A stretch of DNA of 35,232 bases. Origin: Chiloscyllium plagiosum (taxonomy: Eukaryota). Made by a program: the position numbers and the translations under genes. Below, piece after piece: positions 400 through 28,243 of the stretch; the first letter of the stretch is position 1; each line of letters starts with the position of its first letter. The stretch is taken from positions 5,776,034-5,811,265 of the forward strand of contig NC_057756.1 in assembly GCF_004010195.1 (NCBI RefSeq), written 5' to 3'. The notes under the pieces were generated by a model, which did no database searches, had not been told where the DNA came from, and saw nothing but the letters and a program-made list of their open reading frames with translations.

Positions 400-1090
400 G
401 CTATCTTGAGGTATAGACCAAATGGGGACAAAGTGTCCATGTGCATAGATTCCTGAAAGTTGCCACCCAGGTCGATAGGGTTGTTAAGAAGGATGTTCCT
501 GATGAAGGGATTTTGCCCGAAACGACGATTTTACTGCTCCTCGAATGCTGCCTGAACTGCTGTGCTCTTCCAGCTCCACTAATCCAGAATCTGGTTTCCA
601 GCATCTGAAGTCATTGTTTTTACCTTGTTAAGAAGGCATACAGTGTATTGGCTTTTATTGGTAGAGGGGTTGAGTTTCGGAGCCATGTTACAGCTGTACC
701 AAACTCTGCTGTTGCTGCATTTGGAGTATTGAGAACAGTTCTGGTCACCACATTATAGGTAGAATGTGGAAGCTTTGGAAAGAGTTCAGAGGGGATTTAC
801 TAGGATGTAGGGAATGGATTTACGGGTATGGAAAGCAAGTCTTATGAGGAAAGGCTGATGGACTTGAGGTTATTTTCGTTAGAGAAAAGAAGGTTAAGAA
901 GTGATTCAATCAGACATATAAGATAATCAGAGGGTTAGATAGGGTGGACAGTGAGAGCCCTTTTCTTCCGATGGCGATGGCTAGCATGAGGCGACATAGC
1001 TTTAAATCGAGGGGTGATAGATATAGGACAGATATCAGAGTTAGTTTCTTTACTCAGAGAGTAGTAGGACTGTGGAATGTCCTGCCTGCA
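400..1090 (+). mobile_element. CR1-clade LINE 3' part of ORF2 (decayed), interrupted by a hammerhead element
   Basis: LKVATQVDRVVKK..., LEY..QFWSPH..., 'FFTQRVVGLWNVLP' (ORF 944-1153) are typical CR1 ORF2 C-terminal motifs. Confidence 0.85.
493..624 (+). mobile_element. Small non-coding hammerhead-containing insert, family A (Penelope pLTR-like), copy A1
   Basis: 12-bp direct repeat TTGTTAAGAAGG at 481-492 and 625-636; core CTGATGA (499-505) A GGGA TTTT GCCC GAAA CG AC (cleavage-site U mutated to A). Confidence 0.8.
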
Positions 1091-1180
1091 GAAGTCAGTA
1101 TTTACAGTAGAAAAGGACATGGAAGATATAGAATGAGAGGAAATAGATGGTGACATCTTGAAAAATACGCATGTTGCACA

Positions 1181-1263
1181 AAAGCTAGTGCTTCCAGATA
1201 AATCTGGTGTTGTCTGATTTTTAACTTTGTCCAATCCAGTCCAACACCGGCAACTCCACATCA
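1181..1263 (+). mobile_element. Partial copy of hammerhead element family B (downstream arm only)
   Basis: AAAGCTAGTGCTTCC...GATTTTTAACTTTGTCCAATCCAGTCCAACACCGGC matches the arms of 3463-3802 and 23405-23578; the CTGATGA half of the core is absent. Confidence 0.65.
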
Positions 1264-1713
1264 CACCTTATCAATGCCTCTCATCATTTTATCGACTTCT
1301 ATATGGTCATTCCTATGCTCCGGCAAAAAAAAAGTCCCAGCCTATCCAACCTCTCCTTATAACTCAAAGCTTCCAATCCAGGTAGCATCACAGTAAACCT
1401 TTTCTGCACTCTTTCTAGTTTAATAATCTCCTTAACATCAACAACGGAGGATATTGGTTGTCAAGGTGAATTGCAATAATTATGTTACTTCCTCTGGACC
1501 TGTCCAACTGCTCCCCTGGCATGTCTCTGCTGACAGGCTCTGTGTGGGCTGAATGGCCTCTTCCTGTGCTTCTAGCTCTGTGTATGTAATTGTAACCGAT
1601 TGATGTTTCACTCTGGGCCAGATGAGGAAGTGGGGAACTGAGTGAAGACCCTTTTGTTGATGTACAGGGCTGTTACCCTGCAATGCTTGTAACCCTTGTG
1701 TCCTGAAACTGCC

Positions 1714-1996
1714 ATCTCAAGAGGGAACCTCCCAAAGATCAGATGTTACATAGCGCTGTTCAAAACAGTGAGACACTGGACAATGAGCAAGAGGACGAGA
1801 GAGGGGGAGAGAGAGAGAGAATGAGACGGCACGGTGGGTGGCACGGTGGCACAGTGGTTAGCACTGCTGCCTCACAGCGCCTGATCTCAAGAGGGAAGCT
1901 CCCAAAGATCAGATGTTACATAGCGCTGTTCAAAACAGTGAGACACTGGACAATGAGCAAGAGGGCGAGAGAGGGGGAGAGAGAGAGAGAATGAGA
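1714..1996. repeat. 113-bp direct duplication flanking a 57-bp HE1 SINE head fragment
   Basis: 1714-1826 and 1884-1996 differ at only two positions; 1827-1883 is GGCACGGTGGCACAGTGGTTAGCACTGCTGCCTCACAGCGCCTG (with a short stutter), the HE1 5' end. Confidence 0.9.
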
Positions 1997-2129
1997 TAAA
2001 GAGCATCAATAGAAAAAGGAGAGGGAATGAGTCAGCGAAAATGGAGAAAGATGCATCAAGTGACGATAGAAAATCCTGCATTTTTGACTGCCCCTTTCAC
2101 ACCCTGTGGATGTTACAGGATATTTTATA

Positions 2130-2490
2130 ATCCTGGCTGACATGGGCAGTTACTGCATTGGGGTGGGCTGCACTGTTGGATAAAATGTTAAACCAAGGCC
2201 CAAGTGCTCTTGTGAAAGATCCTGTGGTCACAATTTGGATGAAGAACAGAGGTATGTCTCCGGACTCTGCGATGATATTACAGTGTAAGACTGGACAGTC
2301 ATTCACGTTAGGTTTCAGTTCACTCCAAAAGGTGAGGAGGGATCAGAAACCAAAATATATCCATCAGCCAACATCTCTGGAAACTGATTATCTTGAACAT
2401 TGTCACTTTAATGTTTCTGAGAGCTTGCTGTATGCTATGTTTCCTCTATCACAACACTTGAGTACTTTACTAGCTGTGGTGGGACGGAGA
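2130..2490 (+). mobile_element. Old DeuSINE (SacSINE1-like) remnant
   Basis: GCTGCACTGTTGG..ATGTTAAACCAAGGCCC..GTGAAAGATCC..GAAGAACAGAGG resembles the Deu core; GAGCTTGCTGT..TTTCCT..ACAACACTTGAGTACTT resembles its tail; recognised from memory, highly diverged. Confidence 0.55.
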
Positions 2491-3462
2491 AGATGCGGAA
2501 AAAAAGTTCAAAAACAGCAAATTAAACCTGCATGCTTACTTTCTCACACACTTGAAGATGAAGAATCCAATACTCAAAATGACTCCAGCTCCAACTAATC
2601 CTGCTTTCCATTCACCAGAATCTCTACCTGGGAAAAAACAAACCAATGGATGACTACGGAACAGTTTTAGAATGGTGTTCAAGCACACATTTTATTGTTC
2701 TGTCACGCCTCACTGGGATAACTGAATCAAATCCTGCTCTTCACAAACGTTAAAGACATTTTTAGAACATGCAATATTCCCAAACCACCTATTTTCAGAT
2801 CCAGGTTGACAAAAAGCAACAATCACTATTTCCTACAGGTCTTTTGATTCCAGAACTAGGTACACAACTTAATTTAATTGAGCAACCTTGACAAATTAAA
2901 ACTGTAAAGCCCTTTTATAAACTTCCCCCGTCCTGTGTGAGGAAAAAGAAACCTACATCAGTGGAGAGACAACTGGAAACAAAATCCTGAAGTCTTTGTT
3001 GCCAAGATCTGTTGTGTTTGGCTCTTGCTGATCTGCAGTTTATCCTCAACCCTCCCTTTTTTTGAATGCAGCCCCTGATTTGCAGCAGGCACAGGGTGGC
3101 TGCTCACTTATGAAAGATCTCTGACCTATCCAATTCAGAGTCACAATTTGCAGTATCTGATGAAGGAAAACAAAAGCAGCTTTTTCCAGATTAAAGTGGC
3201 TTATTGCAGAGACCTGAGAGGTAGTGTGTTTTGGGCTGCTAGAGTGGCTCCTGGTTTCTCTTTTGGTCTGACAAAGCTTCTCACTGTCTTGCTCACAGAT
3301 TAAGCTGTGCTCAGCACCCTGACAACCCATTACATGGTTGTTGACAGGCAGAGGACCTTTGTCATTCGTAATTGGTCCCTAGTCCACACCAGTCAGACTT
3401 ACTTGTGAACAGCTCCTCAACTCCAGTTCAGCTGCACGTTACTGGAACCCACAACTACTCAA

Positions 3463-3802
3463 GATTCGGAGATGCCGGTGTTGGACTGGGGTGGACAAAG
3501 TTAAACATCACATAACACCAGGTTATAGTCCAACGGGTTTAATTGGAAGCACTAGCTTTCGGAGCGCTGCTCCTTCACCAGGTGGACAGGCATATGGACG
3601 TACATGGAATAGTGTAGGTGGGATGGGCTTCAGATTAGTATGACAGGGCAGTGCAACATCGAGGGCTGAAGGGCCTGTACTGTGCTGTAATGTTCTATGT
3701 TCGATGTTCTATGGACAACCACCTGATGAAAGTGTGCCGCTCTGAAAGCTAATGTTTGTAATTAAACCTGTTGGACTATAACCTGATGTTGTGTGATTTT
3801 TA
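3463..3802. mobile_element. Foldback hammerhead element family B, copy B1 (two inverted cores), split by a CR1 tail
   Basis: 12-bp TSD ACAACTACTCAA at 3451-3462 and 3803-3814; inverted arms ACCAGGTTATAGTCCAAC..TTTAATT / AATTAAACCTGTTGGACTATAACCTG; minus-strand core 3550-3584 and plus-strand core 3720-3754, both partly mutated. Confidence 0.8.
3589..3711 (+). mobile_element. CR1 LINE extreme 3' tail insertion
   Basis: Near-identical to 31890-32014, ends GAAGGGCCTGTACTGTGCTGTA(ATGTTCT)n; flanked by TGGACA at 3583-3588 and 3712-3717. Confidence 0.85.
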
Positions 3803-4055
3803 ACAACTACTCAAATAAGTTTCACAAAAGGAATCAAATTCCTTATTTCCAAAAGAAAACACAGCCGTCCTTGCAAACCTCTGGGTCTTAAATCACTTCC
3901 TTCTAACTTCAGTCCACAGTTTTAAAAAAAAGCACCAAAGTGAAAAGAGACAGTCTTTGCAGTTCTGAGTTTGTGAAGTGACCCACTGATACCTCTAAGG
4001 TCTAAGCAAGGAATGTAATGTTTATATACGATATCTGTATATTTGCAGCATTTGT

Positions 4056-4600
4056 AAGAACATAAGAAACAGGCGTATGAGGAGTGCATTCAGCCTCAGT
4101 CTGCCATTCACTGAGATTATAGCTGGTCAGTAAACTCTGTCTGGTATTCCTGCACCATCTTTGTACTTCTGAATATTTTAAATGTGAAGAAAGCTCCTGA
4201 TCTCTGTTGTAGAAATAGACGTGAGTGAACCTCCACAGCCCTCTGATTCACACAATGTCAAAGATTCACCATCCTCTTTATCTCTTTACCCTCTTTTTCT
4301 GAGATTGTGTCTTCCTTAGTTCAAGACCTCCCCACAGACAAGAGAAACGTCCTTCCTGCACCTACTCTGCCCTGGGGGATCTCTGGATGATTGAACGCGA
4401 TCATCTTTCAATTTTCTGAACTCCAGCGAACACAGTCCCTCATCTACGGAATCTTTCCTCGCTGGAGGATTCCTGAATCCCTGGAATTGGTGAATCTTTT
4501 TGCACCCCATCCCAAACAAGTAATTGCCTTCCTTAGGTCAGGTGACTATCGCTGCACACAGTATTCCATGTGAGGTCTGGCCGAGCAGTTATATAATTGC
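4056..4600 (-). mobile_element. Old CR1 LINE 3' fragment
   Basis: TAAGAACATAAGAA tail; reverse strand reads LEYCVQ..SP.LRK and 'GLCSLEFRKLKDD' (ORF 4316-4519). Confidence 0.7.
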
Positions 4601-4609
4601 ACTCAGATC

Positions 4610-4955
4610 GTGTGGTAGTCATGTGACTGGGAAGATAATCCAGAGGTCAGGCTAATGCTCTTGTAACATGGGTTTAAATCCCAACCCCAGCAGCCAGTGG
4701 GATTTCAACTCGATCAATCAATTGCATTGGAAGCTCGTCTAGGGGAGAGTGACCATGAAGCTATCACTGTTTGCCGTAAAACCCTGACGAGGTCACGAAT
4801 GTCCCTCAGAGAAGGCGATCTGCCATCCTTACCCAGTCTGAGCCTCCACGTAACTCCAGACCCACAGCAAAGTGGCTGTGGGGAATGGCCAAACCTCTTG
4901 GTTCATGGTCAATGAAGACTGACCTTGCCCACAATGCCAATATCCTGTGAAACAA
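4610..4955 (+). mobile_element. tRNA-derived SINE, second family (decayed)
   Basis: Head with B-box-like GGGTTTAAATCCC (4670-4682), then GTGACCATGAAGCT..GAAGGCGATCTGCCATCCTTACC..CTCCAGACCCACAGCAA, a body common in shark DNA. Confidence 0.6.
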
Positions 4956-5049
4956 TAGATATTCATGCACAATATCTGATATATATGCAGGATTTATATA
5001 TGCAGGATTCCTAATATCACAGAGGTGTCAAACGGATGGGACTATATAC

Positions 5050-5240
5050 AGGATAAACAGCGAAAGCACTTGCTATAGACAGGGCAAAGCAATCCAACAA
5101 CAATGGATCTGATCTAAGTTCTGCAGCCCCACCATATCCAGCCATGAATACTGGTGGGCAACTTACTGCAGGAGCCTCCTCAATTATAACCCTTCTCAAT
5201 GATGGGAGAGCCTGCACATCAGGGAGGCTGAGGGCTTTGG
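5050..5240 (+). mobile_element. Old LINE ORF2 linker fragment
   Basis: GCAAAGCAATCCAACAACAATGGATC..CTCAATGATGGGAGAGCC resembles a common shark CR1/L2-group LINE; no intact ORF. Confidence 0.45.
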
Positions 5241-5324
5241 AATTATCCTGTGCTGAGTGGGGATATCAGGATATGTCCCATGTCCAGAATAATCATTGAT
5301 GAAGGAAGTCTCATTATTGAGGAC

Positions 5325-5824
5325 NNNNNNNNNNNNNNNNNNNNNNNNNNNNNNNNNNNNNNNNNNNNNNNNNNNNNNNNNNNNNNNNNNNNNNNNNNNN
5401 NNNNNNNNNNNNNNNNNNNNNNNNNNNNNNNNNNNNNNNNNNNNNNNNNNNNNNNNNNNNNNNNNNNNNNNNNNNNNNNNNNNNNNNNNNNNNNNNNNNN
5501 NNNNNNNNNNNNNNNNNNNNNNNNNNNNNNNNNNNNNNNNNNNNNNNNNNNNNNNNNNNNNNNNNNNNNNNNNNNNNNNNNNNNNNNNNNNNNNNNNNNN
5601 NNNNNNNNNNNNNNNNNNNNNNNNNNNNNNNNNNNNNNNNNNNNNNNNNNNNNNNNNNNNNNNNNNNNNNNNNNNNNNNNNNNNNNNNNNNNNNNNNNNN
5701 NNNNNNNNNNNNNNNNNNNNNNNNNNNNNNNNNNNNNNNNNNNNNNNNNNNNNNNNNNNNNNNNNNNNNNNNNNNNNNNNNNNNNNNNNNNNNNNNNNNN
5801 NNNNNNNNNNNNNNNNNNNNNNNN
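5325..5824. other. Assembly gap (500 N)
   Basis: Run of N; ORFs spanning it are artefacts. Confidence 1.
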
Positions 5825-6491
5825 AGAGTGGGATTAGACTGGGTTGGACATTAAAGTGTACAGCAAGTGACAGGGAGAGTGGGATTAGTCTCAATGGGAT
5901 ATCAAATGGTTTGGAGAATGGGTGGGAGAGTTGAATTTGACTGAGTGGAGACTGAGGGGTAGAATGGCATTAAACTGTGTGGCATATTACAGGGTGCAGG
6001 GAGTGGGATTAGACTGGGTAGGTTATTACAGTGTGAGGGAAGTGAGGGGCACAGTGGAGTTTGTGGGGTTGCAATATTAGAGTGCATGGGTGTGTGGAAT
6101 GTTGGGGAAAAGGTGACTGAAATTTCACCAAATTTTAGCAAGCTTCTTCCGAGTCAGCCTCCAGAAGGAGCCCCTGTAAAGGGGGCTTCATTTCCTTCTT
6201 AAAAGGATTTACCTCGAGCATCAGCGACCTTCGTGTTCGGGAGCAGTGAGAGCGAGGGCCGGGGGCTACCGGGTAGGTAAATAAATCCTTTAAATACTTA
6301 CCTTGTCAGAGAGCACGCTGAACAGGAATGTACATGGGCCTGCTGAGTAAGTGAAGTAATATATTTGGGTGGTTACTTTACCTGAAACACTACTTTGGCA
6401 GTGCCTCCTACTCTAACCAAAAAATAGTCTGTACGCTGATTGGTAAGGTTACTAGTTTTGTTTTATACTGTCTGTTCGGGAATTTCGAACA

Positions 6492-8110
6492 GTGGGAATG
6501 GATGTTGGGACAGTTGAATGCTCCTTCTGCAGAATGTGGGAGGTAAGGATTACCATTCGTGTCCCTGCTAACTTCATCTGCAGGAAGTGCACCCAACTCC
6601 AGCTCCTCGAAAGGGAACTAGAGTTGGAGCTGGATGAATTCCGGATCATTTGGGACGAGGAGGGGCTTATAGAGAGGAGTCACAGGGAGGTAGTCTCACC
6701 TCAGGTACAAGAGAAAGGTAGATGGGTTACAGTCAGGGGATGGAAAGGCAACCGTACCAGGATATCCTGTGGCCATTCACCTCCATAACAAGAGTCTGTC
6801 CCTGTTGCTCAGAATGGAAGGAGGAAGAGGAGCAGAGCATTAGTCATTGGGGACTCCATAGTTAGGGGGACAGATAGGAGGTTCTGTGGGAGCAAGAGAG
6901 ACTCACGGTTGGTGTGTTGCCTCCCAGGTGCCAGGGTTTGTGATGTTTTGGATTGTGGTTTTGGGATCTTTAAGGGGGAGTGGGAGCAGCCCCAAATTGT
7001 GGGCCACATAGGCACTGAAGTGGGAGATGGCACAGGGCAGGGTGGCACTAGGCAAATGGACACACAAGATGGCCGCTGAGCCGTAAATTGGCCACTTGAC
7101 ACACAAGATGGCCACCGGATCACAATATGGAGAGAGAGACAGCAGAGCACTGCCTGGGGCCACCAGAATGCCAGCACAGGGCACTCATAACCTCGTTGAT
7201 GAGTTTAAGGCGGGTGAGGGAGAGAATACACATGAGTAGTGTACACTGCCCGCCGAAGTGGCTGGGTCCAGCCAATACCTCCGTTGGAAATGCTCACTGT
7301 TTGATACAGACTCAATCCAAAGTGCTAATAGCCAGGGCTGCATTAATCGTCCTTCTCAGGAAGAGCGATTAGTGCCCATTACTACAGCAATGGACTTCCA
7401 CACAGACACTGAAACTGACCATGTCTACACTGAAACTGACCATGTCTACACTGAAACTGACAATTACCGCGCTGAAATTAACAAAGGCTGCGCTGGAACT
7501 GACAATGACTGCTCCCAAACTATTAACGATTCTGCGATGTTTACAATGTTACAGAGACTATAACCTCATCACTGACCTATTCTATTACAAAATGTATAAA
7601 AGTATATGCTCTGGTTGGAGAGAAGACTTGCAGCTGACCGCTGTGCTGTTGGTCTCTCTCTCTCTCTCCGGAGCTCCGGAATTTCATTGTACAATAAACT
7701 CTTGTCACTGAACCCCGACTCTGACTCGGAGACTGGTGATTTTCCCCACAACAGCACCAACGACATAGGTAGGAAAAGGAATGGGGATGTAAGGCGGAAA
7801 TTCAGGGAGCTAGGGTGGAAAATTAGAGCTAGAATAAACAGAGTTGTTGTCTCTGGTTGGTCACCCATGCCACGTGCTAGTGAGGAGAGGCATAGGGAGA
7901 GAGAGGTGTTGAAAACGTGGCTACAGTGATGGTGCAGGAGGAGGAGGATTCAGATACCTGGATAAGTGGGGCTCATTCTGGGGCAGGTGGGACCTCTACA
8001 AATGGGAGGGTCTACACCTGAATCAGAGGGGTACCAATATCTTGGGGGGGGGGGGGGGGAGGGAAATTTGCTAATGCTGTCCGGGAGGGTTTAAACAAAT
8101 TCAGCAGGGG
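6492..8110 (+). pseudogene. CR1 ORF1: zinc finger/leucine zipper plus SGNH esterase domain, disrupted
   Basis: CSFCRMWE...FICRKC...LLERELELELDE; ALVIGDSIVRG (GDS block, ~6836-6870); HIGTNDIG split by the LTR at 7016-7753; GLHLN at ~8008-8022. Confidence 0.85.
7016..7753 (+). mobile_element. Solo LTR (Gypsy or class I ERV type), 738 bp
   Basis: TG...CA termini with imperfect inverted ends (TGAAGTGGGA / TCCCCACAACA), 4-bp TSD GCAC (7012-7015, 7754-7757), TATAAAA ~7595, AATAAA ~7693; removing it restores CACATAGGCACCAACGACATAGG (HIGTNDIG). Confidence 0.88.
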
Positions 8111-8209
8111 GAAGGGAACTTGAATTGTAGTTCCAGTACATGAGGTTGAGAGTAGAGAGGTCATAAATAAGGTTTCAAGCTTGCAGGAGTGTACCGGCAG
8201 GCAGGAAGG

Positions 8210-10785
8210 TGGTTTGAAGTGTGTCTACTTCAACGCCAGGTGCATCTGGAATAAGGTAGGTGAACTTCCAGCATGGGTTGGTACCTGGGACTTCGATGTT
8301 GTGGCCATTTCGGAGACATGGATAGTGCAGGGTCAGGAATGGTTGTTGCAGATTCCAGGGTTTAGATGTTTCAGTGAGAACAGGGAAGGTGTTAAAAGGG
8401 GGGGGGAGGTGTGGCTTTATTAGTCAGGGACAGTATTACGGTTGCAGAAAGGACGTTTGATGAGGGCCCGTCTCCTGAGGTAGTATGGGCTGAGGTTAGA
8501 AACAGGAAAGGAGAGGTCAGCCTGTTGGGAGTTTTCTATAGGCCGCCAAGAAGTTCCAGAGATGTAGGGGAAAGGATAGCAAAGATGATTCTGGATAGGA
8601 GTGAGAGAGACAGGGTAGTTCTTACGGGGGCCTTTAACTTTCCAAATATTGACCAGGAATACTATAGTTCGAGAACTTTAAATGGGTCAGTTTTTGTCCA
8701 GTGTGTGCAGGAGGGTGTCCCTCCACAGAATGTTAGGGCAGTACGGTGGCTCAGTGGTTAGCACTGCTGCCTCACAGCACCAGCATCCCAGGTTCGATCC
8801 CAGCCTTGGGCAACTGTCTGTCTGGAGTTTACACATTCTCCCAGTGTCTGCGTGGGTTTCCTCCCACAGTCCAAAGATGTGCAGGTCAGGTGATATGGCC
8901 ATGCTAAATTACCCATGGTGTTAGGTGCATTAGTCAGAGGGAAATGGGTCTGGGTGGGTTACTCTTTGGAGGGCTGGTGTGGACTGGTTGGGCTGAAGGG
9001 TCTGTTTCCACACTGTAGGGAATCTAATAAAAAAAAAATGTAGACAGGCCAACAAGGGATGAGGACACATTGGATTTTCTGCTGAGTAATGAAGCAGGTC
9101 AGGTGACAGATTTGGAGGTAGGTGAGCTATTTGATGATAGTGACCATGATTCAGTCACATTTACTTTAGCAATGGAAAGGGATAGGTATATACCGCAGAA
9201 CAAGAGTTATAGCTGGGGGAAAGGTATTGTGATACGATTAAGCAAGATTTAATATGCGTAGGATTGGGAAAGAAACTGCAGGGGATGGGCACAATTGAAA
9301 AGTGGAGCTTGTTCAAGGAACAGCTACTGCATGTCCTTGATAAGTATGTGCCTGTCAGGCAGGGAGGAAGTGGTCGAGCGAGGGAGCTGTGGTTTACGAA
9401 GGAAGTTGAATCTCTTGTCAAGAGGAAGAAGAAGGCGTATGTAAGGATGAGACGTGAAGGCCCAGTTAGGGTGCTGGAGAGTTACAAGTTAGTCAGGAAA
9501 GATCTAAAGGGAGAGCTAAGAAGTGTCAGGAGTGGACATGAGAAGTCGTTGACAGGTAGGATCAAGGAAAACCCTAAAGCTTTCCAGTGGTATGTCAGGA
9601 ATAAAAGAATGAGTCGAGTAAGATTAGGGACAATCAAGAACAGTAGTGGGAAATTGTGTGTGGAGTCCAAGGAGATAGGAGAGACACTAAATGAATATGT
9701 TTTGTCAGTATTCACACAGGAAAAATACAAAGTTGTCGAGGAGAATACTGAGGTACAGACTGCGAGACTAAACAGGATTGAGATTTACAAGGAGGAGGAG
9801 TTAGCAATTCTGCAAAGTGTGAAAATAAATAAGTCCCATGGGCTGAATGGGATTTACCGTAGGATTCTCTGGGAAGCCAGGGAGGAGATTGCAGAGCCTT
9901 TGGCTTTGATCTTCATATAATCATTGTCTACAGGAATAGTGCCAGAAGACTGGAGGAGAGCAAATGTTGTCCCCTTGTTCAAGAAGGGGAGTAGGGACAA
10001 CCCTGGGAATTATAGATCAGTGAGCTTTATGCGGTTGTGGGTAAAGTATTGGAAAGGATTACAAGAGATAGGATTTATAGTCATCTAGAGAGGAATAAGT
10101 TGATTAGGGACAGTCAACACGGTTTTGTGACGGGTAAGTCATGCCCTTTGAGAAAGTGACCAAACAGGTGGATGAGGGTAAAGCGGTTGATGTGGTGGAT
10201 ATGGATTTCAGTCAGGTGTTTGATAAGGTTCCCCACGATAGGCTACTTCACAAAATTTGGAGGTTTGGATTGAGGGTAATTTAGCGGTTTGGATCAGAAA
10301 TTGGCTCGCTGAATAAAGGCAGAGGGTGATGGTTGATGGGAAATGTTCATCCTGGAGTTCAGTTACGAGTGCGGTACTGCAAGGATCCACTGCTGTTTGT
10401 CATTTTCATAAGTGACCTGGATAAGGGAGTAGAAGATGAGTTAGTAAATTTGCAGATGGCACTAAGGTCGGAGGAGTTGTGGATAGAGCAGAAGGATGTT
10501 GTAGGTTATAGAGGGACGTGGATAAGCTGCAGAGCTGGGCTGAGAGGTGGCAAATGGAGTTTAATGTGGGAAAGTGTGAGGTGATTCACTTTGAAAGGAA
10601 TAACAGGAATACAGAGGACTGGGCTAATAGTAAGATTCTTGGGTGTCTGGATGAGCAGAAAGATCTCTGAGACCATATACATGGGCCCCTGAAAGTTGCC
10701 ACCCAGGTTGATAGGATTGTTAAGAAGGCATATGATTTTATTGGTAGAGGGATTGAGTTTCGGAGCCACAAGGTCATATTGCAGC
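8210..10785 (+). pseudogene. CR1 ORF2: APE endonuclease + reverse transcriptase, frameshifted
   Basis: LKCVYFNAR, AISETW, GVFYRPP, G(A)FNFP, DSDH; KENPKAF; DNPGNYR, SQHGF, degenerate FAD(G)TK; multiple stops and frameshifts. Confidence 0.9.
8736..9038 (+). mobile_element. HE1 SINE (V-SINE, tRNA-derived)
   Basis: A box TGGCTCAGTGG, B box GGTTCGATCCC, V-domain TGGAGTTT.CACATTCTCCC.GTGTCTGCGTGGGTTTCCTCC, CR1-like tail GAAGGGTCTGTTTCCACACTGTA. Confidence 0.92.
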
Positions 10786-13179: not shown

Positions 13180-13499
13180 GGGCGGCACGGTGGCACAGTG
13201 GTTAGCACTGCTGCCTCACAGCGCCTGAGACCCGGGTTCAATTCCCGCCTCAGGCGACCAACTGTGTGGAGTTTGCACGTTCTCCCCGTGTCTGCGTGGG
13301 TTTCCTCCGGGTGCTCCGGTTTCCTCCCACAGTCCAAAAGATGTGCAGGGTCAGGTGAATTGGCCATGCTAAATTGCCCGTAGTGTTAGGTAAGGGGTAA
13401 ATGTAGGGGTATGGGTGGGTTTCGCTTTGGCGGGTCGGTGTGGACTTGTTGGGCCGAAGGGCCTGTTTCCACACTGTAATGTAATCTAATCTAATCTAA
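13180..13499 (+). mobile_element. HE1 SINE, young full-length copy
   Basis: Intact head GGGCGGCACGGTGGCACAGTGGTTAGC, B box GGTTCAATTCC, V domain, (TAATC)n tail. Confidence 0.95.
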
Positions 13500-14950: not shown

Positions 14951-15190
14951 TTTCTTTTAAACCCAAAACACATAGAGGAGTTGATTAGCCATGTTGGGGA
15001 TTGGGAAAAGTATTTTTATTTCAAGTGTGACCCATGGAGTGGTGGGACGACATAAGGGTGCAATCACCCAGCCTCAGTGCTAACCCTCCGTTCTGAGATC
15101 ATCTTGGTAAATGTGCTTTCTCATGTAGGACAGTGATTTCTGATGCTCCACATTACATTTATCTAAAAGGATCCATTCTCTGTGTGTTAG

Positions 15191-15471
15191 ATTTCACAGA
15201 TAAACCTATGATACACCCTGTGGAAATTGTCACAGGAAAGCGTGTGAATTTAAGCTGTATCTTCAATACAACGTGCACTGGAACAGCACCTGCCTTAACC
15301 TGGGACACTCCCACTGCTGCACATGGATCACTCTCAAACACCGTCACTCAGCGTGGGGTCACTCTGAGCTATACTTCTGTTCTGAGCCTGACACCATCAC
15401 TCAGACACCAGGGACAAACGCTCACCTGCAGAGTGAGTTATCAGAGCAGACCCTCATACTGTCAGTGAAAT
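15191..15471 (+). pseudogene. Siglec/MAG/CD22-like C2-set immunoglobulin domain exon with a frameshift near its 3' end
   Basis: Acceptor ...TTCTCTGTGTGTTAG|, phase 1; DFTDKP..EIVTGKRVNLSCIFNTTCTGTAPALTW...YTSVLSLTPSLRHQGQTLTCRVSY; the G strand SEQTLILSVK lies in another frame and ends phase 1 at donor GTAACA (15472); exon length 281 is not a multiple of 3. Confidence 0.85.
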
Positions 15472-17330: not shown

Positions 17331-17344
17331 TGTACAACAAACAA

Positions 17345-17870: not shown

Positions 17871-17894
17871 ACTTGTTCTGCTTTGTTATCTAAA

Positions 17895-18200: not shown

Positions 18201-18349
18201 AGGGAGTCTTCCAACATTTAAGTTAACTCCAATGACTGCGCAACACTTTGAGAGACGCTGAGAATGTTAGAAGTGAGATATCAACTGATATCTTCTTTCT
18301 CCACAAATTACATAACTGCGGCAGACATTTTAGTTCAGTACAAAGAGTC

Positions 18350-18490: not shown

Positions 18491-18496
18491 GTGAAA

Positions 18497-18945: not shown

Positions 18946-19643
18946 TAGAACATAGAACATTACAGCACAGTAGGCCCTTCAGCCCTCGATATTGCACCGA
19001 CCTGTGGGACCAATCTGAAGCCCATCCAACCTACCGTATTCCATTCTCGTCTATATACCTATCCAATGGCTGCTCAAATGCCCATAAAGTTGGCGAATCT
19101 ACTACCATTGCAGGCAGTGCGTTCCACACCCCTACTACTCCCTGAGTAAAGAAATTACCTCTGACATCTGTCCTATAACTATCACCCCTCAATTTAAAGT
19201 ATCTCCCCTTGCGCTATACATCATCATCCTAAGAAAAAGGCTCTCACTGTCCATCTGATCTAACCCTCTGATTATCTTATATGTCTCAATTAAGTCACCT
19301 CTTAACCTTTTTCTCTCCAACAAAAACAGCCTCAAGGCCCTCAGCCTTTCCTCATAAAACCTTCCCTCCATACCAGGTAACATCCTAGTAAATCTCCTCT
19401 GCACCCTTTCCAAAGCTTCCACCTCGTTCTTATAATGTGGTGACCAGAACTGTACACAATACTCCAAGTGCGGCTGCACCAGAGTTTTGTACAGCTGCAG
19501 CATAACCTCATGGCTCCGAAACTCAATCCCTCTACCAATAAAAGCTAACACACCGTATACCTTCTTACCAACCCTATCAACGTGGGTGGCAACTTTGAGA
19601 GATCTAGGGTGTAGGTTTGCTCGCTGAGCTGTAGGTTTGATAT

Positions 19644-19683
19644 CCAGACGTTTCATTACCTGGCTAGGTAACATCATCAGTGG
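19644..19683 (-). ncRNA. Minimal type I hammerhead ribozyme motif in the Penelope 3' terminus (family C)
   Basis: Minus strand: CCA CUGAUGA U GUUACCU AGCC AGGUAAU GAAA CG UC UGG; stem I CCA/UGG, 7-bp stem II, palindromic ACGU in place of stem III. Confidence 0.85.
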
Positions 19684-19871
19684 CGACTTCCAAGTGAAGC
19701 GAAGCTGTTGTCTCCTGCTTTCTATTTATATCTTTCTCCTGGATGGGGTTCCTGGGGTTTGTGGTGATGTCATTTCCTGTTCGTTTTCTGAGGGGTTGAT
19801 AGATGGCACCTAGATCTATGTGTTTGTTTATGGCGTGGTGGTTGGAGTGCCAGACCTCGAGGAATCCTCTG

Positions 19872-19963
19872 AAAAATGTGTTGCTGGAAAAGCGCAGCAG
19901 GTCAGGCAGCATCCAAGGAACAGTAGAATCGCCGTTTCGGGCATAAGCCCTTCTTCAGGAATT
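19872..19963 (-). mobile_element. Hammerhead element family A, copy A2, nested in the Penelope element
   Basis: Minus strand TTC CTGAAGA A GGGC TTAT GCCC GAAA CG GC; imperfect TSD CTCGAGGAATCCTCTG / CTCTAGGAATTCTCTG (19856-19871, 19964-19979). Confidence 0.8.
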
Positions 19964-22281
19964 CTCTAGGAATTCTCTGGTATGTCTTTGCTCAGCCTGT
20001 CCCAGGATAGATGTTTTGTCCCAGTCAAAATGGTGGTTTGTTTTCATCCGTGTGTAGGGCTACGAGGGAGAGAGGGTCGTGTCTTTTTGTGGCTAGTGGT
20101 GTTTATGTTCCTGGTGGCTACCTTTCTTCCTGTTTGTCCTACGTAGTGTTTGTGGCAGTCCTTGCATGGAATTTTGTAGATGACGTTGGTTTTGTCCATG
20201 GGTTGTACTGGGTCTTTTAAGTTTGTTAGTTTTTGTTTGAGAGTGTTGGTGGGTTTGTGTGCTACTAGGTTTCCAAGGGGTCTTAGTAGTCTGGCTGTCA
20301 TTTCTGAAAATTGTTTGATGTATGGTAAGGTGGTTAGGGTTTCTGGCTGTGTTTGGTCTGCTTGTCATGGTTTGTTCTTGAGGAATCTGCGCACTGTATT
20401 TTTTGAGTATCCGTTCTTCTCGAATAAGTTGTATAGGTGGTTCTCCTCTGTTTTCCGAAGTTCGTCTGTGCTGCAGTGTGTGGTGGCTCGTTGGAATAGT
20501 GTTTTGATACAGCTTCGTTTGTGTGTGTTGGGATGGTTGCCGGTGTAGTTAAGTAACGGACCCAGATTTTTGGTTTGATGATTGGTAGGGCTGTTTGTTC
20601 TAGTCTTTGCATTACTGTTTCTGCTATGAATCCTGATAGCGGAGATCCCATGGGTGTGCCGTTGGTTTGTTTGTAGACTATGTTGTTGAAAGTGAAGTGG
20701 GTGGTGAGGCACAGGTCCACTAGCTTCATGATGTTTTCATTGGTAATGGGATTGATGGTGGTTGGTGTGTGTGTGATGGTCTCTTCTAAAAGTGTGGTAA
20801 GTGTTTCCTTTGCCAGGTCGATGTTGATGGAGGTGAACTGTGCTGTTACGTCGAATGAGATCTTTGCTTCGTCTTCCTCTATTTTGGTGTTTTTGATGAT
20901 TTTTAGGAATTCCTGGGTGGAGTGGATGGAGTGCTGTGACCCTTCTACTAGGTATTTCAGTCTTGCGTGTAGCTCTTTGGCCAGTCTGTAAGTTGGTGTT
21001 CCGGGTAGTGAGACTATAGGTCTGAGGGGGGCTCCTGGTTTATGGATTTTTGGTAGTCCGTAGAATCGTGGGGTGTTGTTCCTGTCGGGTTTCAGTTTCT
21101 GGAATTCCGTCGTGTTTAATTGTCCGGAATTGAGTAATTTTGTTCCCTAGTTGTTGGGGTTGGGTCTAGCTCCACCTGTTGGTAGGTGTTGGTCTCTGCG
21201 AGTAGTGCATTGGCTTTCTCGCTGGCTTTCTCTGTCCAGGATGACTGTGAGCTGACCTTTGCCTGCAGGTAATATAACAATGTTTTTGTCTTTTTTGAGG
21301 GATTTATATACATGTACACCAAGATTCTCTCTGCTCATCCACACGACCAAGAATCTTACCATTAGCCCAGTGCTCTGTATTCCTGTTGCTCCTTCCAAAG
21401 TGAATCACCTCACACTTTTCCACATCAAACTCCGTTTGCCACCTCTCAGCCCAGCTCTGCAGCTTATCTATGTCCCTCTGTAACCTACAACTTCCTTCAT
21501 CACTGTCGACAACTCCACCAACTTTAGTGTTGTCTGCAAATTTACTAACCCATCCTTCTACACCCTCATCCAGGTCGTTTATAAAAATGACAAACAGCAG
21601 TGGGCCCAAAACAGATCCTTGCGGTACCTCACTTGTAACTGAGCTCCAGGATGAATATTTCCCATCAACCACCACCCTCTGTCTTCTTTCAGCGAGCCAA
21701 TTTCTGATTCAAACGGCTAAATCACTCTCACTCCCATACTTCCATATTTTGTACAATAGCCTACCATGGGGAACCGTATCAAACGCCTTACTGAGATCTA
21801 TATACACCACACCAATGACTTTACCCTCATCCACCTGTTTGGTCACCAACTCAAGGAACTCAATAAGGTCTGTGAGGCACGGCCTACCCTTCACAAAACC
21901 GTGCTGACTATCCCTAATCAGCTTATTCCTCTCTAGATGATTGTAAATCCTATCTCTTATAACCTTTTCCAACACTTTACCCACAACCAAAGTAAGGCTC
22001 AATGGTCTATAATTTCCAGGGTTGTCTCTACTCCCCTCCTTGAACAAGGGCACAACATTTGCTCGCCTCCAGTCTTCCTGCACTATTCCTGTAGATAATG
22101 ATGACATAAAGATCCAAGCCAAAGGCTCTGCAGTCTCTTCCCTGGCATCCCAGAGAACCCTCGGATAAATCCCATCCAGCCCAGGGGACTTATCTGTTTA
22201 CACACTTTCCAGAATTGCTAACACCACCTCCTTGTGAACCTCAATCCCATCTCGTCTAGTAGCCTGTACCTCAGTATTCTC

Positions 22282-23080
22282 AAAGAACAAAGAACAAAGG
22301 AAATTACAGCACAGGAACGGGCCCTTCGGCCCTCCAAGCCTGCGCTGATCCTAGCCTTGATCTAAACCTGTCACCTATTTTCTAACATCTGCATCCCTTT
22401 GCTCCCTGACCATTCATGTATCTATCCAGAGACATCTTAAATGATGCTATCATGCCTGCCTCTACTACCTCCACTGGCAACGCATTCCAGGCAACCACCA
22501 TCCTCTGCATGAAGGACTTTCACACGTCTATCTCTCCCCTAAACCTTTCCCCTCTCACCTTGAACTTGTGACCCCCTAGTAATTGAGTCCCCCACTCTGG
22601 GAGAAAGCTTCTTGCTATCCACCCAATGTGTACCTCTCATGATTTTGTAGACCTCAATCAGATCCCCTCTCAATCTCTGTCTTTCTAATGAAAATAATCC
22701 TAATCTACTCAACCTCTCTTCACAGCTAGCGCCCTCCATACCAGGCAACATCCTGGTGAACCTCCTCTGCACCCTCTCTAAAGCATCCACATCCTTTTGG
22801 TAATGTATTCCAAATGTGGCCGAACCAAAGTCATGTTCAGCTGTAACATGACCTGCCAACTCTTGTACATTCCTGAAGAAGGGCTTATGCCCGAAACGTC
22901 GATTCTCCTGTTCCTTGGATGCTGCCTGACCTGCTGCGCTTTTCCAGCAACACATTTTCAGCTCTGATCTCCAGCTTCTGCAGTCCTCACTTTCTTCTGC
23001 CAACTCTTGTACTCAATACCCCGTCTGATGAAGGAAAGCAAGCTGTATGCCTACTTGACCACTCTACTGAGCTACGTTGA
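22282..23080 (-). mobile_element. CR1 LINE 3' portion
   Basis: AAGAACAAAGAACAAAG tail; ALERVQRRFTRMLPG...RGDLIEVYKIMRG in ORF 22539-23003. Confidence 0.88.
22869..22996 (+). mobile_element. Hammerhead element family A, copy A3 (core intact)
   Basis: Perfect 16-bp TSD CTGCCAACTCTTGTAC (22853-22868, 22997-23012); CTGAAGA (22873-22879) A GGGC TTAT GCCC GAAA CG TC GA. Confidence 0.88.
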
Positions 23081-23404
23081 AATATGAGAGGGGGGAGCAT
23101 TTTGCAGTGATCATAAGGCCATCAGATCAAAGATTGTTATGAAAAAAGGACAAGGATGGACCTGAATCCAAAGTTCTAAACATGGGAAAGTCCAATGTTA
23201 ATAAGATCAGATTTCATTTAGCTGGAGTAGATTGGGAGCATATACTTTTAAGTAAATCTCTGTCAGAATATTAGGATACATTCCTGAAGGAATTTGGGAA
23301 TGGGCCGAGCCAACGTGTTCCATAAAGATAAAATGTGAGATCAACAAATCCTGTGAACTCTGGATGTCAAGGGAAATTCAGGATTGGATAAAGAAAAAAA
23401 GGAA

Positions 23405-23578
23405 TGATCCAGAGATGCCGGTGTTGGACTGGGGTGTACAAAGTTGAAAATCACGCTAGCTTTCGGAGCGACGCTCCTTCATCAAGTGATCACCTGATGA
23501 AGGAGCGTCGCTCCGAAAGCTAGTGTGCTCCCAATTAAACCTGTTGGACTATAACCTGGTGTGGTGTGATTTTCAACT
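23405..23578. mobile_element. Foldback hammerhead element family B, copy B2
   Basis: 68-bp palindrome 23456-23523 with one mismatch; plus-strand core CAC CTGATGA A GGAGC GTC GCTCC GAAA GC TA GTG intact; A-rich approximate TSD (AGAAAAAAAGGAA / AGAAAAAGGAA). Confidence 0.85.
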
Positions 23579-24036
23579 GAGAAAAAGGAAGGCAGATATC
23601 GTGGGCTTAAAACTGTTGAATCCAGAAAGAAGTATATAACATGTATAAAACAAAACTTAAAAAGGAAACGGAGGGGGCATGAAAGGATAATGGCAGGTAA
23701 AATAAAGGAAAATCCTCATTACTTTATAAGTACAATAAGAATTTTTTTAAAACGCAGAAAGGTGTTGGGCCCATCAGAATTACCATGGTACCTTTAGCCT
23801 GGAGCCAGAGGTCAAAGGGAGGGTTCAAAATAAATACTTGGTGTTGGGGTTCAGCAGTGTGAGGGACAATGTGAGAGATCAGGGAGATGGAGTGTAATAT
23901 ACTTAAAGAAGTCAGCATGGACAGAGAGGAGATTCTGAGTGGTCTGGCAGTGTTAGAAGTAGATAAATCACCAAGTTCAGATGAAGTGTTTCTCAGACTG
24001 TTGAGGGTGGTAAATTTGGGGGGGATGTGGTAATAG

Positions 24037-24207
24037 TGTTCCTGATGAAGGGCTTATGCCCGAAATGTCTATCCTCCTGCTGCTTGGATGCTGCCTGACC
24101 TGCTGTGCTTTTCCAGCAACACACTCTCGACTCTGATCTCCGGCATCTGCAGACCTCACCTACAGCTCAGCGAGCAAACCTACACCCTAGACCTCACTTT
24201 CTCCCGG
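24037..24207 (+). mobile_element. Hammerhead element family A, copy A4, containing a 29-bp Penelope terminal fragment
   Basis: CTGATGA (24042-24048) A GGGC TTAT GCCC GAAA TG TC; approximate TSD GTGGTAATAG / GTGGTCATAG (24027-24036, 24208-24217). Confidence 0.82.
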
Positions 24208-24710
24208 GTGGTCATAGCAGGGGCACTGGCAAATATATTCAATTCCTCTGTGGATTCTTAATGTGGTTCTGTTATTTAAGACTGAAAGGTAATGCATTCA
24301 ACATAGTCTACTTCGACTTCAACAAGGCTTCTGACAAGGTCACATTTGGGAAGCTGACGATGAAGAAGAGACCATTGGATCCAAAGAAAGTCAACCTATT
24401 GGATATAGAACTGGCTGAGTGGCAGGAAGCAGATGTTTCTGCGACCGAAGGCCTGTGCCCAGTGAGGTCCCACAGGGATCACTGTTGGAATCCTTGCTGA
24501 TTGGAGATTCTATAAATGATTGACACATCAATGTTGGTCACTCAGCTTGTGGATTATATAAACTTTGGTGAGCTGATAAATAATGAGGAAGACAGCCGTA
24601 GATTATAGGAGGATATTGACGGTTGATCAGTGGCAAATGGAACTCCATCTGAATAAATGTGGGGGAATGCACTTGGGCAGGACGTACAGTATAAGGCAGG
24701 AGAGTACACG

Positions 24711-25045
24711 GGGATGGCATGGGGGCTCAGTGGTTAGCACTGCTGCCTCACAGCACCAGGGGCCCAGTTTTGATTCCAGCCTCGGGGTGACTGTCTGTGA
24801 GGAGTTTGCACATTCTCCCCGTGTCTGCGTGGGTTTCCTCCGGGTGCTCCCACAGTCCAAAGATGTGCAGGTTAAGGTGAATTGGCCATGCTAAATTGTC
24901 CATCATGTTCAGGGATGTGTAGGTTGGGTGCATAATTCAGGGGTAAATATAGGGTAGGGGAATGGGTCTGGGTGGGTTACTCTTCAGAGGGTCGGTGTGG
25001 ACTTGTTGGGCTGAAGGGCCTGTTCCCACACTGTAGGGAATCTAT
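24711..25045 (+). mobile_element. HE1 SINE
   Basis: Head, V domain and GAAGGGCCTGTT.CCACACTGTAGGGAATCTA tail. Confidence 0.92.
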
Positions 25046-25704
25046 CCTTTGGTTCCATGTTGAATGGTAGGTCCCTGGGAAGCACTGAAGATCAAAGGGA
25101 TCTTGGTGTCCATCTCCACTGTTTCCTTAAAGATAGCCCGAGTTGTTAACAGAGACATATGGAATAATGATCTTTATTAGCTGAAACAACAGAATACAAG
25201 GGCAGGGAGGGTGTGCTGGAACTGTATCAAACATCAGTTAGGCTGCAACTCGAGTATTACGTACAGTTCTGGAATTCACTTTATACCAGGGATGTGATTA
25301 ATTTGGAGATGGTGCAGAGGAGATCTACTCGGATGTTGTCTGGGCTGGAGAATTTGAGTTATGAAGAGTGATTGAATACACTGGGGTTGTTCCCTTGGGG
25401 AGGATAACTGAGGAGGTAACGTGCCTTGTGAAGTTTAAATTCACGGTGCAAATAGTTAGGATAGATAGAAAGAGGCTTTTCCCCTTGCTGGGGCATAGTT
25501 TACAAGTAAGGGGAAGGAGATTCGGAGGGGGTGTGAGAAAATATATTTTCATCCAGAGGGGAATCTGGGAATTACTGCCTGAGATGGTGGAAGAGGCAGA
25601 AACCATCAAAACATTTAGAACTATTTAGATATCCTCTGACATTGTCAAGGTGTACAGGGCTGTGGGCCAAGTGCTGGCAAAAGGGATTGTAATTGTTAGG
25701 TGTT

Positions 25705-26815
25705 TGAATTGAGACACAGTGAAAAGCTTTGTCCTGTGTGCAGCACAGGCAGGTCACAGAGGTAAGTAGCTTAGATAGGTAAATAACAGGGAAACAGCGG
25801 CAAAAACAAAAACACAGGGACAGGCGAATGTTAAGAGTTTGTCAGACCATTCAGTATTCTAACAGCAGTCGGGTAGAAACTGTTCCTAAACCGGCTGGTG
25901 CACGTGTTCAGGCTTCTGTACCTTCTCCCCGATGGTAGATTAGATTACATTACATTACAGTGTGGAAACAGGCCCTTCAGCCCAACAAGTCCACACCGAC
26001 CCGCCGAAACGCAACCCACCCACCTACATTTGCCCCTTCACCTAACACTACGGGCAATTTAGCATGGCCAATTCACCTAACCTGCACATTTTTGGACTGT
26101 GGGAGGAAACCGGAGGAAACCCACGCAGACACGGGGAGAATGTGCAAACTCCACACAGTCAGTCGCCCGAGCCGGGAATTGAACTTGGGTCTCTGGCGCT
26201 GTGAGGCAGCAGTGCTAACCACTGAGCCACTGTGCACAGGCTGTAGATAAACATTGCCAGGGTGGGATGGAGCTTTGAGAACGCTGGCGGCCCTTCCTTG
26301 ACAATGGGCCTGGGAGATGGATTCTGTAGATGGGAGGTTGGCCTTTGTGACTGTCCGGGCCGAGTTCCCCACTCTTTTGAATGGTACAGTTGCTGTACCA
26401 GGTAGTGATACATCCAGACAGGATGCTCTCGATGGGGCACCTATAAAAGTTGGCATGGGTATTCGCCATCATAACAAATTTCCTCAGCTGCCTGAGGGAG
26501 AAGAGACGTTGTTGGGCCTTTGTAACCGGTGCGTCCACATGGAGAGTCCGAGAAAGCTCGTTGTGGGTGACCACTCCCAGGAGCTTGACACTCTCCACCC
26601 GTCCCTCCTCAGTGCTGTTAATGTGCAGGGGGGGGCAGGAGTAACATCCCGCCGAAAGTCAATAATGAGTTCCTTGGTCTTGCCGGCATTGAGAGCTCGG
26701 TTATTCTCAGTGCAACATTTTTCCAGGTCTTCCCCCTCCCATCTGTAGTCTGTTTCATCGCCATCTGAGAGTCGACCGATTGTGGTGGTGTCGTCAGTGA
26801 ATGTGTAAATGGCCC
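25705..26815 (-). mobile_element. Rex1/Babar-clade LINE 3' portion
   Basis: F(T)DDTT.IGR.SDGDETDYR, LNAGKTKELIIDFRR, KAQQRLFSLRQLRKF, FYRC.IESILSGCITTWY are Rex1-type RT C-terminal motifs. Confidence 0.88.
25936..26235 (-). mobile_element. HE1 SINE nested in Rex1
   Basis: TAGATTAGATTACATTACATTACAGTGTGGAAACAGGCCC tail; reverse complement of the HE1 body. Confidence 0.93.
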
Positions 26816-26849
26816 CGGCATGTTTGAACATTTCACATTAAGAAATGCA

Positions 26850-27085
26850 GGGTTGACCACTGAGCCTCCTTCAGTACTGACCCCCCGAAGGTGCTGCACA
26901 CCATCAATACTGACTGGCTGACAGTGCAGCAATCCTACAGTACTGGCCCTCTGACCGTGTGGCACTCCCTCAGCAGTGAATGTTAGATAGAAAAGCGCTC
27001 TCTCAGTACTGCCCTGTCGACATGGCTGCATAACCTCAGTATGACAGTGAAGTACTTTCTTCAGACTGAACTGGAGTATCAACTC
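26850..27085 (-). repeat. Degenerate ~31-bp tandem repeat, same DeuSINE-derived unit as 18350-18490
   Basis: Recurrent CTCAGTACTG.CC...GACAGTGC.GCA units (about seven). Confidence 0.6.
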
Positions 27086-27409
27086 ATTAATCTGATCTGT
27101 GGAAAAGGAAGCTACATTGACCATTAAACACAGGAGCAGTACTTAGGCCCTTCAGCCCCCCCCCCCCCATCAAGTCTGTCCAACCTTCCAATCATAGCTG
27201 ATGTGTTTCTCAACCCCATTCTCCTGCTTTCTCCCTGTAACCTGTTATGAACTCAGCCAGACCACTCAAAATATCCTTAAGCAGGAAGCCCAGACCATAA
27301 CTTAGCAATTTGTTTCTCTAAGTGTACAGTGAAAATTACCCGGACTAAGTTAGCGAGGTTGACTACCAGGTTTTAAAACAGACAGAAATTTATTCACAAA
27401 ATTATATTT

Positions 27410-27567
27410 AAAAGGCAGTTGGGTGGGTATATGAATAGGAAGGGTTTGGAGGGATACGGGCCGGGTGCTGGCAGGTAGATTGGGTTGGGATATCTGGTCG
27501 GCATGGACGGGTTGGACCGAAGGGTCTGTTTCCATGCTGTACATCTCTATGACTCTATGATTCTATG
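27410..27567 (+). mobile_element. CR1 (HER1-type) extreme 3' tail
   Basis: Reverse complement of 34730-34890; ends CTCTATGACTCTATGATTCTATG. Confidence 0.88.
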
Positions 27568-28047
27568 AAACACAAAGAACAGAATACATAACCCCTACAG
27601 AATTCAATTTATCCAAACTAGACTTAATTATGCTGTTCCAAATAAACACAGCAGTCCCAATAAGCAAACCTCCTTAAAAACAGTTTAAAAATGGAACAGG
27701 GGCTTATAGCTTGAAGTTAGAAGGGCAGAAAGAGAGAGGGGGGAAGAGAGAGAGAGAGAGAGGGTTTTCACAAGCTGTTTCCACACAGCTGAACCCCCAA
27801 CTAGTTCTAGACTGAATTGCTCAGCTCGAGAGCTGACCACTCCCCTTTCATTATACAGGTCACTTCTAAAACGTGACCACTTTGGCCTGGTCTCATCTGC
27901 TTACATATAAACAAAATGGCCTCTCAATACCCTTTCATCTCTGTACCAAACCAGTCTAATCAGAACTGGAAGGGTTTTAATGACCCCTCTGAAAAAAAAA
28001 CAATGACACAGTATCCTTGAGAAAGGAACACCTTTTAGAAAAAAGGC

Positions 28048-28243
28048 AAAAGTGGGCACTGCAGATGCTGGAGATCAGAGTCTAGATTAGAATGGTGCTG
28101 AAAAAGAACAGCAGGTCAGGCAGCATCCGAGGAGCAGGAAAATCGGTTCCTGATGAAGGGCTTTTGGCCGAAACATCGATTTTCCTGCTCCTCGGATGCT
28201 GCCTGACCTGCTGTGCTTTTCCAGCAACACTCTAATCTAGATT
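28048..28243. mobile_element. Hammerhead element family A, copy A5, in foldback configuration
   Basis: ~65-bp inverted arms 28081-28145 and 28178-28241 enclose CTGATGA (28150-28156) A GGGC TTTT GGCC GAAA CA TC; approximate TSD CCTTTTAGAAAAAAGGC / CCTTTAGAATAAAGGGC. Confidence 0.82.

Follow-up and report, generated by a model that had tools for sequence, protein, structure and literature searches.

Short hammerhead-headed repeats in Chiloscyllium plagiosum as probable run-off copies of a Penelope terminal repeat

The window discussed here is a stretch of 35,232 nucleotides from Chiloscyllium plagiosum (NCBI RefSeq assembly GCF_004010195.1, contig NC_057756.1, positions 5,776,034 to 5,811,265, forward strand). 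It carries five inserts of a repeat, here called Family A, that begins at a hammerhead ribozyme motif. Family A is probably the terminal repeat (pLTR), with its hammerhead, of an autonomous, Neptune-like Penelope element. Its short copies, or stubs, are likely to be cDNAs that ran off the 5' end of the parent mRNA after copying its first ~92 or ~130 nt.

Positions within the family are counted from q1, the first base of its youngest copy (window 22869); q5 is C3 of the hammerhead, and the predicted cut falls after q32. All five inserts noted earlier in the window are present, and direct repeats flank each of them, perfectly in two cases and imperfectly in three:

493-624, plus strand: old tailed copy of the pLTR unit whose hammerhead core has decayed, 79% identical to the 22869 copy over q2-117; duplication 12/12 bp (481-492, 625-636)
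19872-19963, minus strand: young tail-less copy, q1-q90, with the short 3' end, sitting in the 3' end of a Poseidon-like Penelope; duplication 14/16 bp (19856-19871, 19964-19979)
22869-22996, plus strand: young tailed copy, q1-q128; duplication 16/16 bp (22853-22868, 22997-23012)
22869-22904, plus strand: minimal type I hammerhead of this copy, with core 22873-22879, extra A 22880, stem II 22881-22892, GAAA 22893-22896, a CG palindrome, predicted cut after 22900, and a weak stem I (22869-22872 with 22901-22904)
22961-22996, plus strand: optional tail of ~35-38 nt, lying between the 3' end classes q92-97 and q127-131
24037-24207, plus strand: tailed copy split at 24160-24188 by a Poseidon-like 3' end; outer duplication 9/10 bp (24027-24036, 24208-24217)
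28048-28243, both strands: head-to-head insertion of two arms; duplication 13/15 bp (28032-28046, 28244-28258)
28145-28049, minus strand: tailed arm of that insertion, q32-q125
28147-28243, plus strand: tail-less arm of that insertion, q2 to ~q97

The inserts are related, and three of them have features absent from the first description: one is tail-less and on the minus strand, one is a pair of arms and one is interrupted. The 29-bp interruption at 24160-24188, itself the 3' end of a Poseidon-like element, carries a 9-bp duplication of its own (24151-24159, 24189-24197) and looks like an extremely short abortive insertion.

Counts for the family come from an unselected sample of the 3.56-Gb genome that holds the window, consisting of 120 stretches of 10 kb at round coordinates with 1,155,797 called bases (1.16 Mb). 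Arms with an end before q55 were left uncounted, and end counts omit arms at locus edges or gaps, which keeps 195 5' ends and 207 3' ends. Family A makes up 208 arms in 162 insertions, or 2.9% of the sampled bases; simple scaling of the insertions gives ~5x10^5 copies genome-wide, in keeping with the very high copy number that had been predicted. Target-site duplications were found at 48 of 141 sampled insertions, compared with 2 of 140 control pairings, and at 20 of 30 young insertions, with a length of 9-19 bp.

Evidence for the pLTR reading comes from the parent itself. Twelve of the 30 best genomic matches retrieved extend upstream into common sequence, and walking along it reached a reverse transcriptase (RT), a CX4CxxC linker and a GIY-YIG domain in a single frame, and then the N-terminus. 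At one locus (L140), a 561-aa open frame runs into the unit. It matches RVT_1 above the cut-off (E 1.4e-8) and GIY-YIG below the Pfam cut-off (E 5e-4), the motif IYCIHCTRC..YIGET being present; it also holds YIDD and the linker, at residues 409-417. Mobilisation by a Penelope RT, as originally proposed, is supported.

The arrangement of the unit relative to the open reading frame (ORF) was examined at 30 loci picked by a match to the ORF N-terminus, which are therefore a selected set. The unit or its 3' part directly precedes the ORF start in 21 of them; the remaining nine break off near the ORF start. The ATG lies ~40 nt downstream of q127, and a second unit begins ~150 nt past the ORF end. 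One locus of the unselected sample (L258:3487-6958) shows the tail, the ORF regions and a 3' unit in order over ~3.5 kb, and L246, L247 and L250 likewise end in the unit. Because the unit stands both before the ORF start and after the ORF end, it is best read as the pLTR of an autonomous element. This was one of the options originally offered; that the unit is discrete, without an ORF-bearing parent, was not confirmed, and a non-autonomous retrozyme-like element is not supported.

A linker of the form CX2-5CxxC between the RT and endonuclease domains occurs in Neptune and Nematis and, as far as the available text of PMC8557442 describes them, not in Poseidon elements. Its presence points to a parent closer to Neptune or Nematis than to Poseidon.

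Some side observations concern the same element. Between the ORF and the next pLTR, one locus (L233:3100-4363) holds a reverse-oriented fragment of another RT-type retroelement. Loci L020-L023, L227, L123 and L127 between them show short templated pieces repeated at 5' junctions and, within ORF copies, tandem repeats of 26-53 bp; together these suggest repeated template slips by the RT.

The ends of the copies are not random. Among the 195 5' ends, 45 lie upstream of q-7, extending into the RT/GIY-YIG ORF region, 92 lie at q-7 to q+7, and 58 lie downstream. The density is 6.1 per nt in the pile-up and 0.22 per nt just upstream of it. Ends reaching upstream, combined with the pile-up at q1, mean that truncations of a longer parent and a sharp hot spot are both present. 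The fixed 5' boundary noted earlier is real, and the scatter along a longer parent that had been named beforehand as refuting a discrete element is found as well, for the 45 upstream ends. Agreement with the parent is 0.73 at q1, 0.36-0.53 at q-4 to q-1 and at background further upstream (70 anchored arms). Copies that bear the ORF behave in the same way: 17 of the 21 with the unit before the ORF begin at or after q1 (5 at q1-6, 12 at q13-96), and the other 4 begin upstream, in partial tandems or longer 5' repeats. The 3' ends are bimodal (n=207), with 87 at q78-107, 111 at q115-127 and 9 elsewhere; after refinement the long class ends at q130-131 and the short class mostly at q92-97.

Longer copies suggest why q1 should be special. 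A TTAT-like motif starts 31-33 nt before q1. Of 35 long copies whose identity to the reference is 62-96%, 33 have it at -36 to -25; in control windows the counts are 2/35 and 0/35. We read this conserved motif as TATA-like. The bases at q-1/q1 are C|A. A transcription start near q1, making q1 the 5' end of the RNA, is inferred from this motif, from the ORF-bearing copies that begin at or after q1, from the composites described below and from a second hammerhead family of like layout (family B, below). An alternative reading of q1 as a 3' splice site was rejected because the preceding bases are TC, not AG. No clear excess of a cap-derived G before q1 was seen in the anchored arms (18/70).

Another regularity is found in head-to-head pairs, which account for 46 of the 162 insertions. 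Forty-four of the pairs join a long arm to a short arm, one is long+long and one is short+short, whereas single copies (66 long, 50 short) would lead one to expect 49% long+short (P 7e-12). A tail at one end only has been described qualitatively (PMC8557442). The protein of an anole Penelope element nicks and extends both target strands and has been modelled as a dimer (PMC11167929), which suggests one priming site per strand.

A third class of copies is composite. In 12 of the 30 ORF-start loci a leader and an ORF fragment are followed by an arm that begins at q1-10 without its normal upstream sequence; as the loci were selected, this is not a genome-wide rate. A single duplication surrounds the whole composite in L213 (15/15), L222 (14/14) and L219 (14/14), and is weaker in others; no clear duplication was seen around L212, L224 and L235. 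Oligo-A or A/T runs lie between the ORF fragment and q1 at three junctions (L232, L240, L224), as if the RT had switched to RNAs with adenylated ends. Contigs of sequencing runs X1 and X2 contain joints of this ORF-to-q1 type as well. The idea that composites arose when a stub later inserted into an ORF fragment was rejected where one duplication flanks everything and the ORF does not resume. The composites likely match an RT that started in the leader, ran off its end and jumped to the 3' end of another RNA.

These observations can be joined in a model of how stubs arise. Transcription would start at ~q-4 to q1, at hammerhead stem I, from a promoter that lies further upstream in the pLTR. The GIY-YIG domain would nick both target strands, 12-17 bp apart, and the RT would prime internally, at q~92-97 and at q~130, as the anole element does at its two sites in vitro. 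It would then reach the 5' end of the RNA after ~92 or 130 nt. A single stub would be such a cDNA integrated as it is, and a head-to-head pair would be the joined cDNAs of the two strands, one arm of each length. Composites, and possibly some long copies, would result when the RT jumps to the 3' end of another RNA and continues synthesis. Internal priming, its two sites, nicking of both strands and a need for downstream RNA were all described for the anole element in vitro (PMC11167929). Stubs have neither the upstream motif nor the sequence downstream of the priming site and are thus likely to be dead on arrival.

In its full form the model is a target-primed counterpart of "strong-stop" cDNA synthesis: a dimeric RT primes once per target strand at two fixed leader sites and runs off the capped 5' end, so that longer copies can be made only by a jump between templates. 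Stubs, pairing and composites would be its fossil record, and the jumps a route by which pLTRs and tandems are regenerated. We hold this fuller account tentatively, at somewhat below an even chance.

One alternative keeps the same parent and derives the stubs from its 3' pLTR, with the cut at q1 made by RT stalling at the hammerhead, by endonuclease resolution or by microhomology of the tailed end with the bases preceding q1. Truncation at the 5' end is usual for Penelope-like elements (PLEs; PMC8557442), and the 45 arms that reach upstream are ordinary 3'-anchored truncations. Junctions recur at q4/q14 and at q33, with microhomology supplied by stem II and by stem I, respectively. Arkhipova's proposal of self-priming for head-to-head copies and nuclease resolution for the tail (PMC8557442, PMC3846280) would also fit here, as an alternative to priming on two strands. 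An RT, however, meets the helices from their 3' side, so that stalling should leave ends at q25-36, and only 16 of 195 ends lie at q21-36. The hammerhead fold is weak (z -0.5), and stalling leaves unexplained both the fixed TATA-like spacing and the ORF-start copies and composites that end at the same base. This alternative is considered unlikely.

Several points weigh against the run-off reading. None of the loci examined holds an intact full-length copy, and 0 of 20 extended loci have an ATG-started frame of 400 aa. Because 58 of the 5' ends fall beyond q7, further downstream, and some copies retain 4 nt upstream of q1, the boundary is not a single base. RNA reads (poly(A) single-cell) show no site at which the ends of many molecules coincide. 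A short motif is common to the tailed end and to the bases that precede q1, and a recombination or nuclease model could use it. The Poseidon-like family of the window has no clear pile-up (4/30 matches at the core). The anole in vitro results come from a Poseidon-clade element, whose start sites showed no strand difference, against a strict assignment of one site to each strand (PMC11167929). Penelope of D. virilis has an internal TATA-less promoter (PMC2377424), and in rotifers a host gene was mobilised with nothing more than pLTRs in cis (PMC3846280), so stubs could themselves be templates. Finally, a tree built from 86 columns for 68 short and 36 long copies has little resolution (8/94 branches starred), with a slight clustering of short copies (8/500 shuffles as low); there may therefore be minor stub-to-stub copying.

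The last points bear on the view first taken of this family, namely that it is an independent non-autonomous element, a non-LTR retrozyme or something like a short interspersed element (SINE), that derives from a pLTR and whose short copies are transcribed and re-copied by a Penelope RT. It is true that 111 of the 162 insertions are stubs only, with no arm reaching upstream of q-7, and that pLTR-derived retrozymes occur in other vertebrates (bioRxiv 10.64898/2026.07.22.740005). In the tree, however, short and long copies are intermixed (25 label changes, 29.7 when shuffled), and no bootstrap tree places either in one clade. Some short and long rows are identical in the alignment, and every well-supported subfamily clade of >=5 rows holds both. 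A lineage of short copies apart from the autonomous element is not supported. Retrozymes are defined by tandem units; in the 1.16 Mb there are no tandem arrays and one doubtful head-to-tail neighbour among 208 arms, although rare arrays may exist elsewhere. Monomers running from cleavage to cleavage would begin at q33. Family A RNA reads (run X21) come from either strand, and 92-93% of them extend into unrelated flank, as would read-through transcripts; nothing else was seen in them. An independent element seems to us quite improbable.

The hammerhead motif itself is real. The copy at 22873-22900 has the minimal Penelope-type core, extra base, stem II and palindrome that had been predicted, but among the window copies this is the only complete series CUGANGA-A-GGGC-loop-GCCC-GAAA-CG-UC. 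The 493 and 19872 copies have lost U16.1, stem II is mismatched in the 493 and 28146 copies, and the CG palindrome is lost in the 24037 and 28146 copies. All features listed for minimal hammerheads in the available text of PMC4209133 are present except a full helix I of 4-5 bp, among them the core, the extra base between 9 and 10.1, G10.1-C11.1 and the palindromic 15.2-16.2. Helix II has 4 bp, compared with 7-8 bp in Schistosoma, and helix I mostly has 2+1 bp.

The motif is well kept in the family. The whole core is retained in 73 of 129 aligned arms, and non-CpG core columns are 90-99% constant. Common variants fall at N7, in loop II, at q35 and in the tail, outside the core and stem II, as expected if the source elements are under selection. 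Stem II is paired in 92% of cells and covaries slightly, with 8 two-sided changes, 5 of them at one pair; the copies are related, so controls here are not probabilities. Stem I is paired in 66%, and one of its four pairs is mismatched in 83 of 109 rows. In one subfamily (L081, L101, L110, L268) loop II differs, and stem I regains four perfect base pairs through a change at q35; there the minimum-energy fold is the hammerhead. Folding found nothing stable beyond stem II (z -0.5 to 0.1), and Rfam hammerhead models gave no match in the window at E <= 10. Rfam microRNA matches at 28117-28206 and 23459-23520 were rejected as palindromes.

It might be supposed that hammerhead self-cleavage sets the template ends, so that the copies are fossils of ribozyme processing. 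Six of the 195 5' ends do coincide with q33, which directly follows the predicted cut. Variation between subfamilies is concentrated in stem I, in loop II and at N7, with no change in the core or stem II. Four of these six ends, however, are in head-to-head pairs with stem I microhomology at that base, two being single, and for this confounding the q33 ends were rejected as cleavage fossils. The main peak lies 32 nt upstream of the cut, and since cleavage would give q33, not q1, the ribozyme does not explain the 5' end. That cleavage sets the ends is therefore highly improbable. Cleavage of dimers was reportedly described by Lunse et al. in 2017. Related hammerheads cleave weakly, as dimers or with protein (PMC11167929, PMC4209133), and 8 of 9 Xenopus dimers failed to cleave (bioRxiv 10.64898/2026.07.22.740005). 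In the anole element insertion is independent of cleavage and, in the data given in PMC11167929, no reads end at the cut. In the source element the hammerhead probably functions, without setting the ends.

Other repeats of the window show related features:

23452-23580; 3499-3584 (minus strand); 3720-3804; 1201-1262: family B, a second hammerhead-headed family with a different stem II
19601-21270, minus strand: Poseidon-like Penelope, 5'-truncated, RVT_1 E 1.2e-6, without Cys linker

Family B has palindromic pairs and an optional ~37-nt tail, with 64 arms in the 1.16-Mb sample. Forty of its 63 matches start at positions 1-3, TATAAA lies at -40 to -36 from the core in 9 of 19 cores, and 18 of 19 head-to-head pairs are long+short. 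Its anatomy is thus the one seen in Family A, and it is probably the leader of another Penelope family, for which no ORF was found. The Poseidon-like element, host of the 19872 copy, is inserted in the end of a CR1-like long interspersed element and has its own hammerhead at ~19680, with a TATA box upstream.

The window also holds a common tRNA-headed SINE (for example 13180-13498 and 24712-25052), and ten tandem copies of a 54-bp unit from its body occupy 28750-29285. An open frame at 15097-15468 (plus strand) is a possible host gene exon, presumably of immunoglobulin constant type and Siglec/MAG-like.

Family A can be compared with several known systems. Like the Neptune and Nematis PLEs with an endonuclease (EN+) in PMC8557442, its parent has one ORF with RT, a CX2-5CxxC linker and, at the C-terminus, a GIY-YIG domain, and the family shares their hammerhead pLTRs, partial tandems, truncated copies in inverted orientation, tail of 30-40 bp on one side and variable duplications. 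It differs from the EN+ elements as described there in that about two thirds of insertions are only a 92-130-nt leader, present in ~5x10^5 copies with sharply fixed 5' ends; the parent is judged Neptune-like by its linker.

PAc, the Poseidon element of Anolis carolinensis discussed above, also has two 3' ends ~35 nt apart near the pLTR-ORF junction with a hammerhead upstream, and its tail stretch is the interval between two internal RT start sites (PMC11167929). The PAc ORF begins in stem II, with priming inside the ORF, whereas Family A has its hammerhead and the two 3' ends outside the coding sequence, in a leader 40 nt ahead of the ATG. The 5' pile-up, template-jump composites and strict long+short pairing seen in Family A do not figure in the PAc account, in the available part of PMC11167929.

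The minimal PLE hammerheads of PMC4209133 are likewise mostly single motifs from truncated PLEs, with some close pairs on opposite strands, and that paper already reported truncated pLTR hammerheads scattered in vertebrate genomes. Non-LTR retrozymes (bioRxiv 10.64898/2026.07.22.740005) share a non-coding, pLTR-related sequence with a type I hammerhead and many monomers; Family A differs in having no tandem arrays, ends away from the cut site, no separate lineage and parent sequence on both sides.

Penelope has been listed for the whale shark (PMC8455134). The literature search found no account of Family A or of a strong-stop step in PLEs; most subscription papers, Repbase and Dfam lay outside it, so the family may be catalogued. 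The regeneration of pLTRs and tandems has been described as an open question (PMC2377424), and according to PMC11167929 the events that follow priming have yet to be validated.

The element belongs to a known kind, being an ordinary Neptune-like Penelope, and its copies record a likely mode of replication. About 3% of the genome consists of Family A ends, which annotation would mistake for a SINE or a retrozyme. As a natural experiment, they offer counted predictions of a start at stem I, of one priming site per strand and of template jumps at the 5' end.

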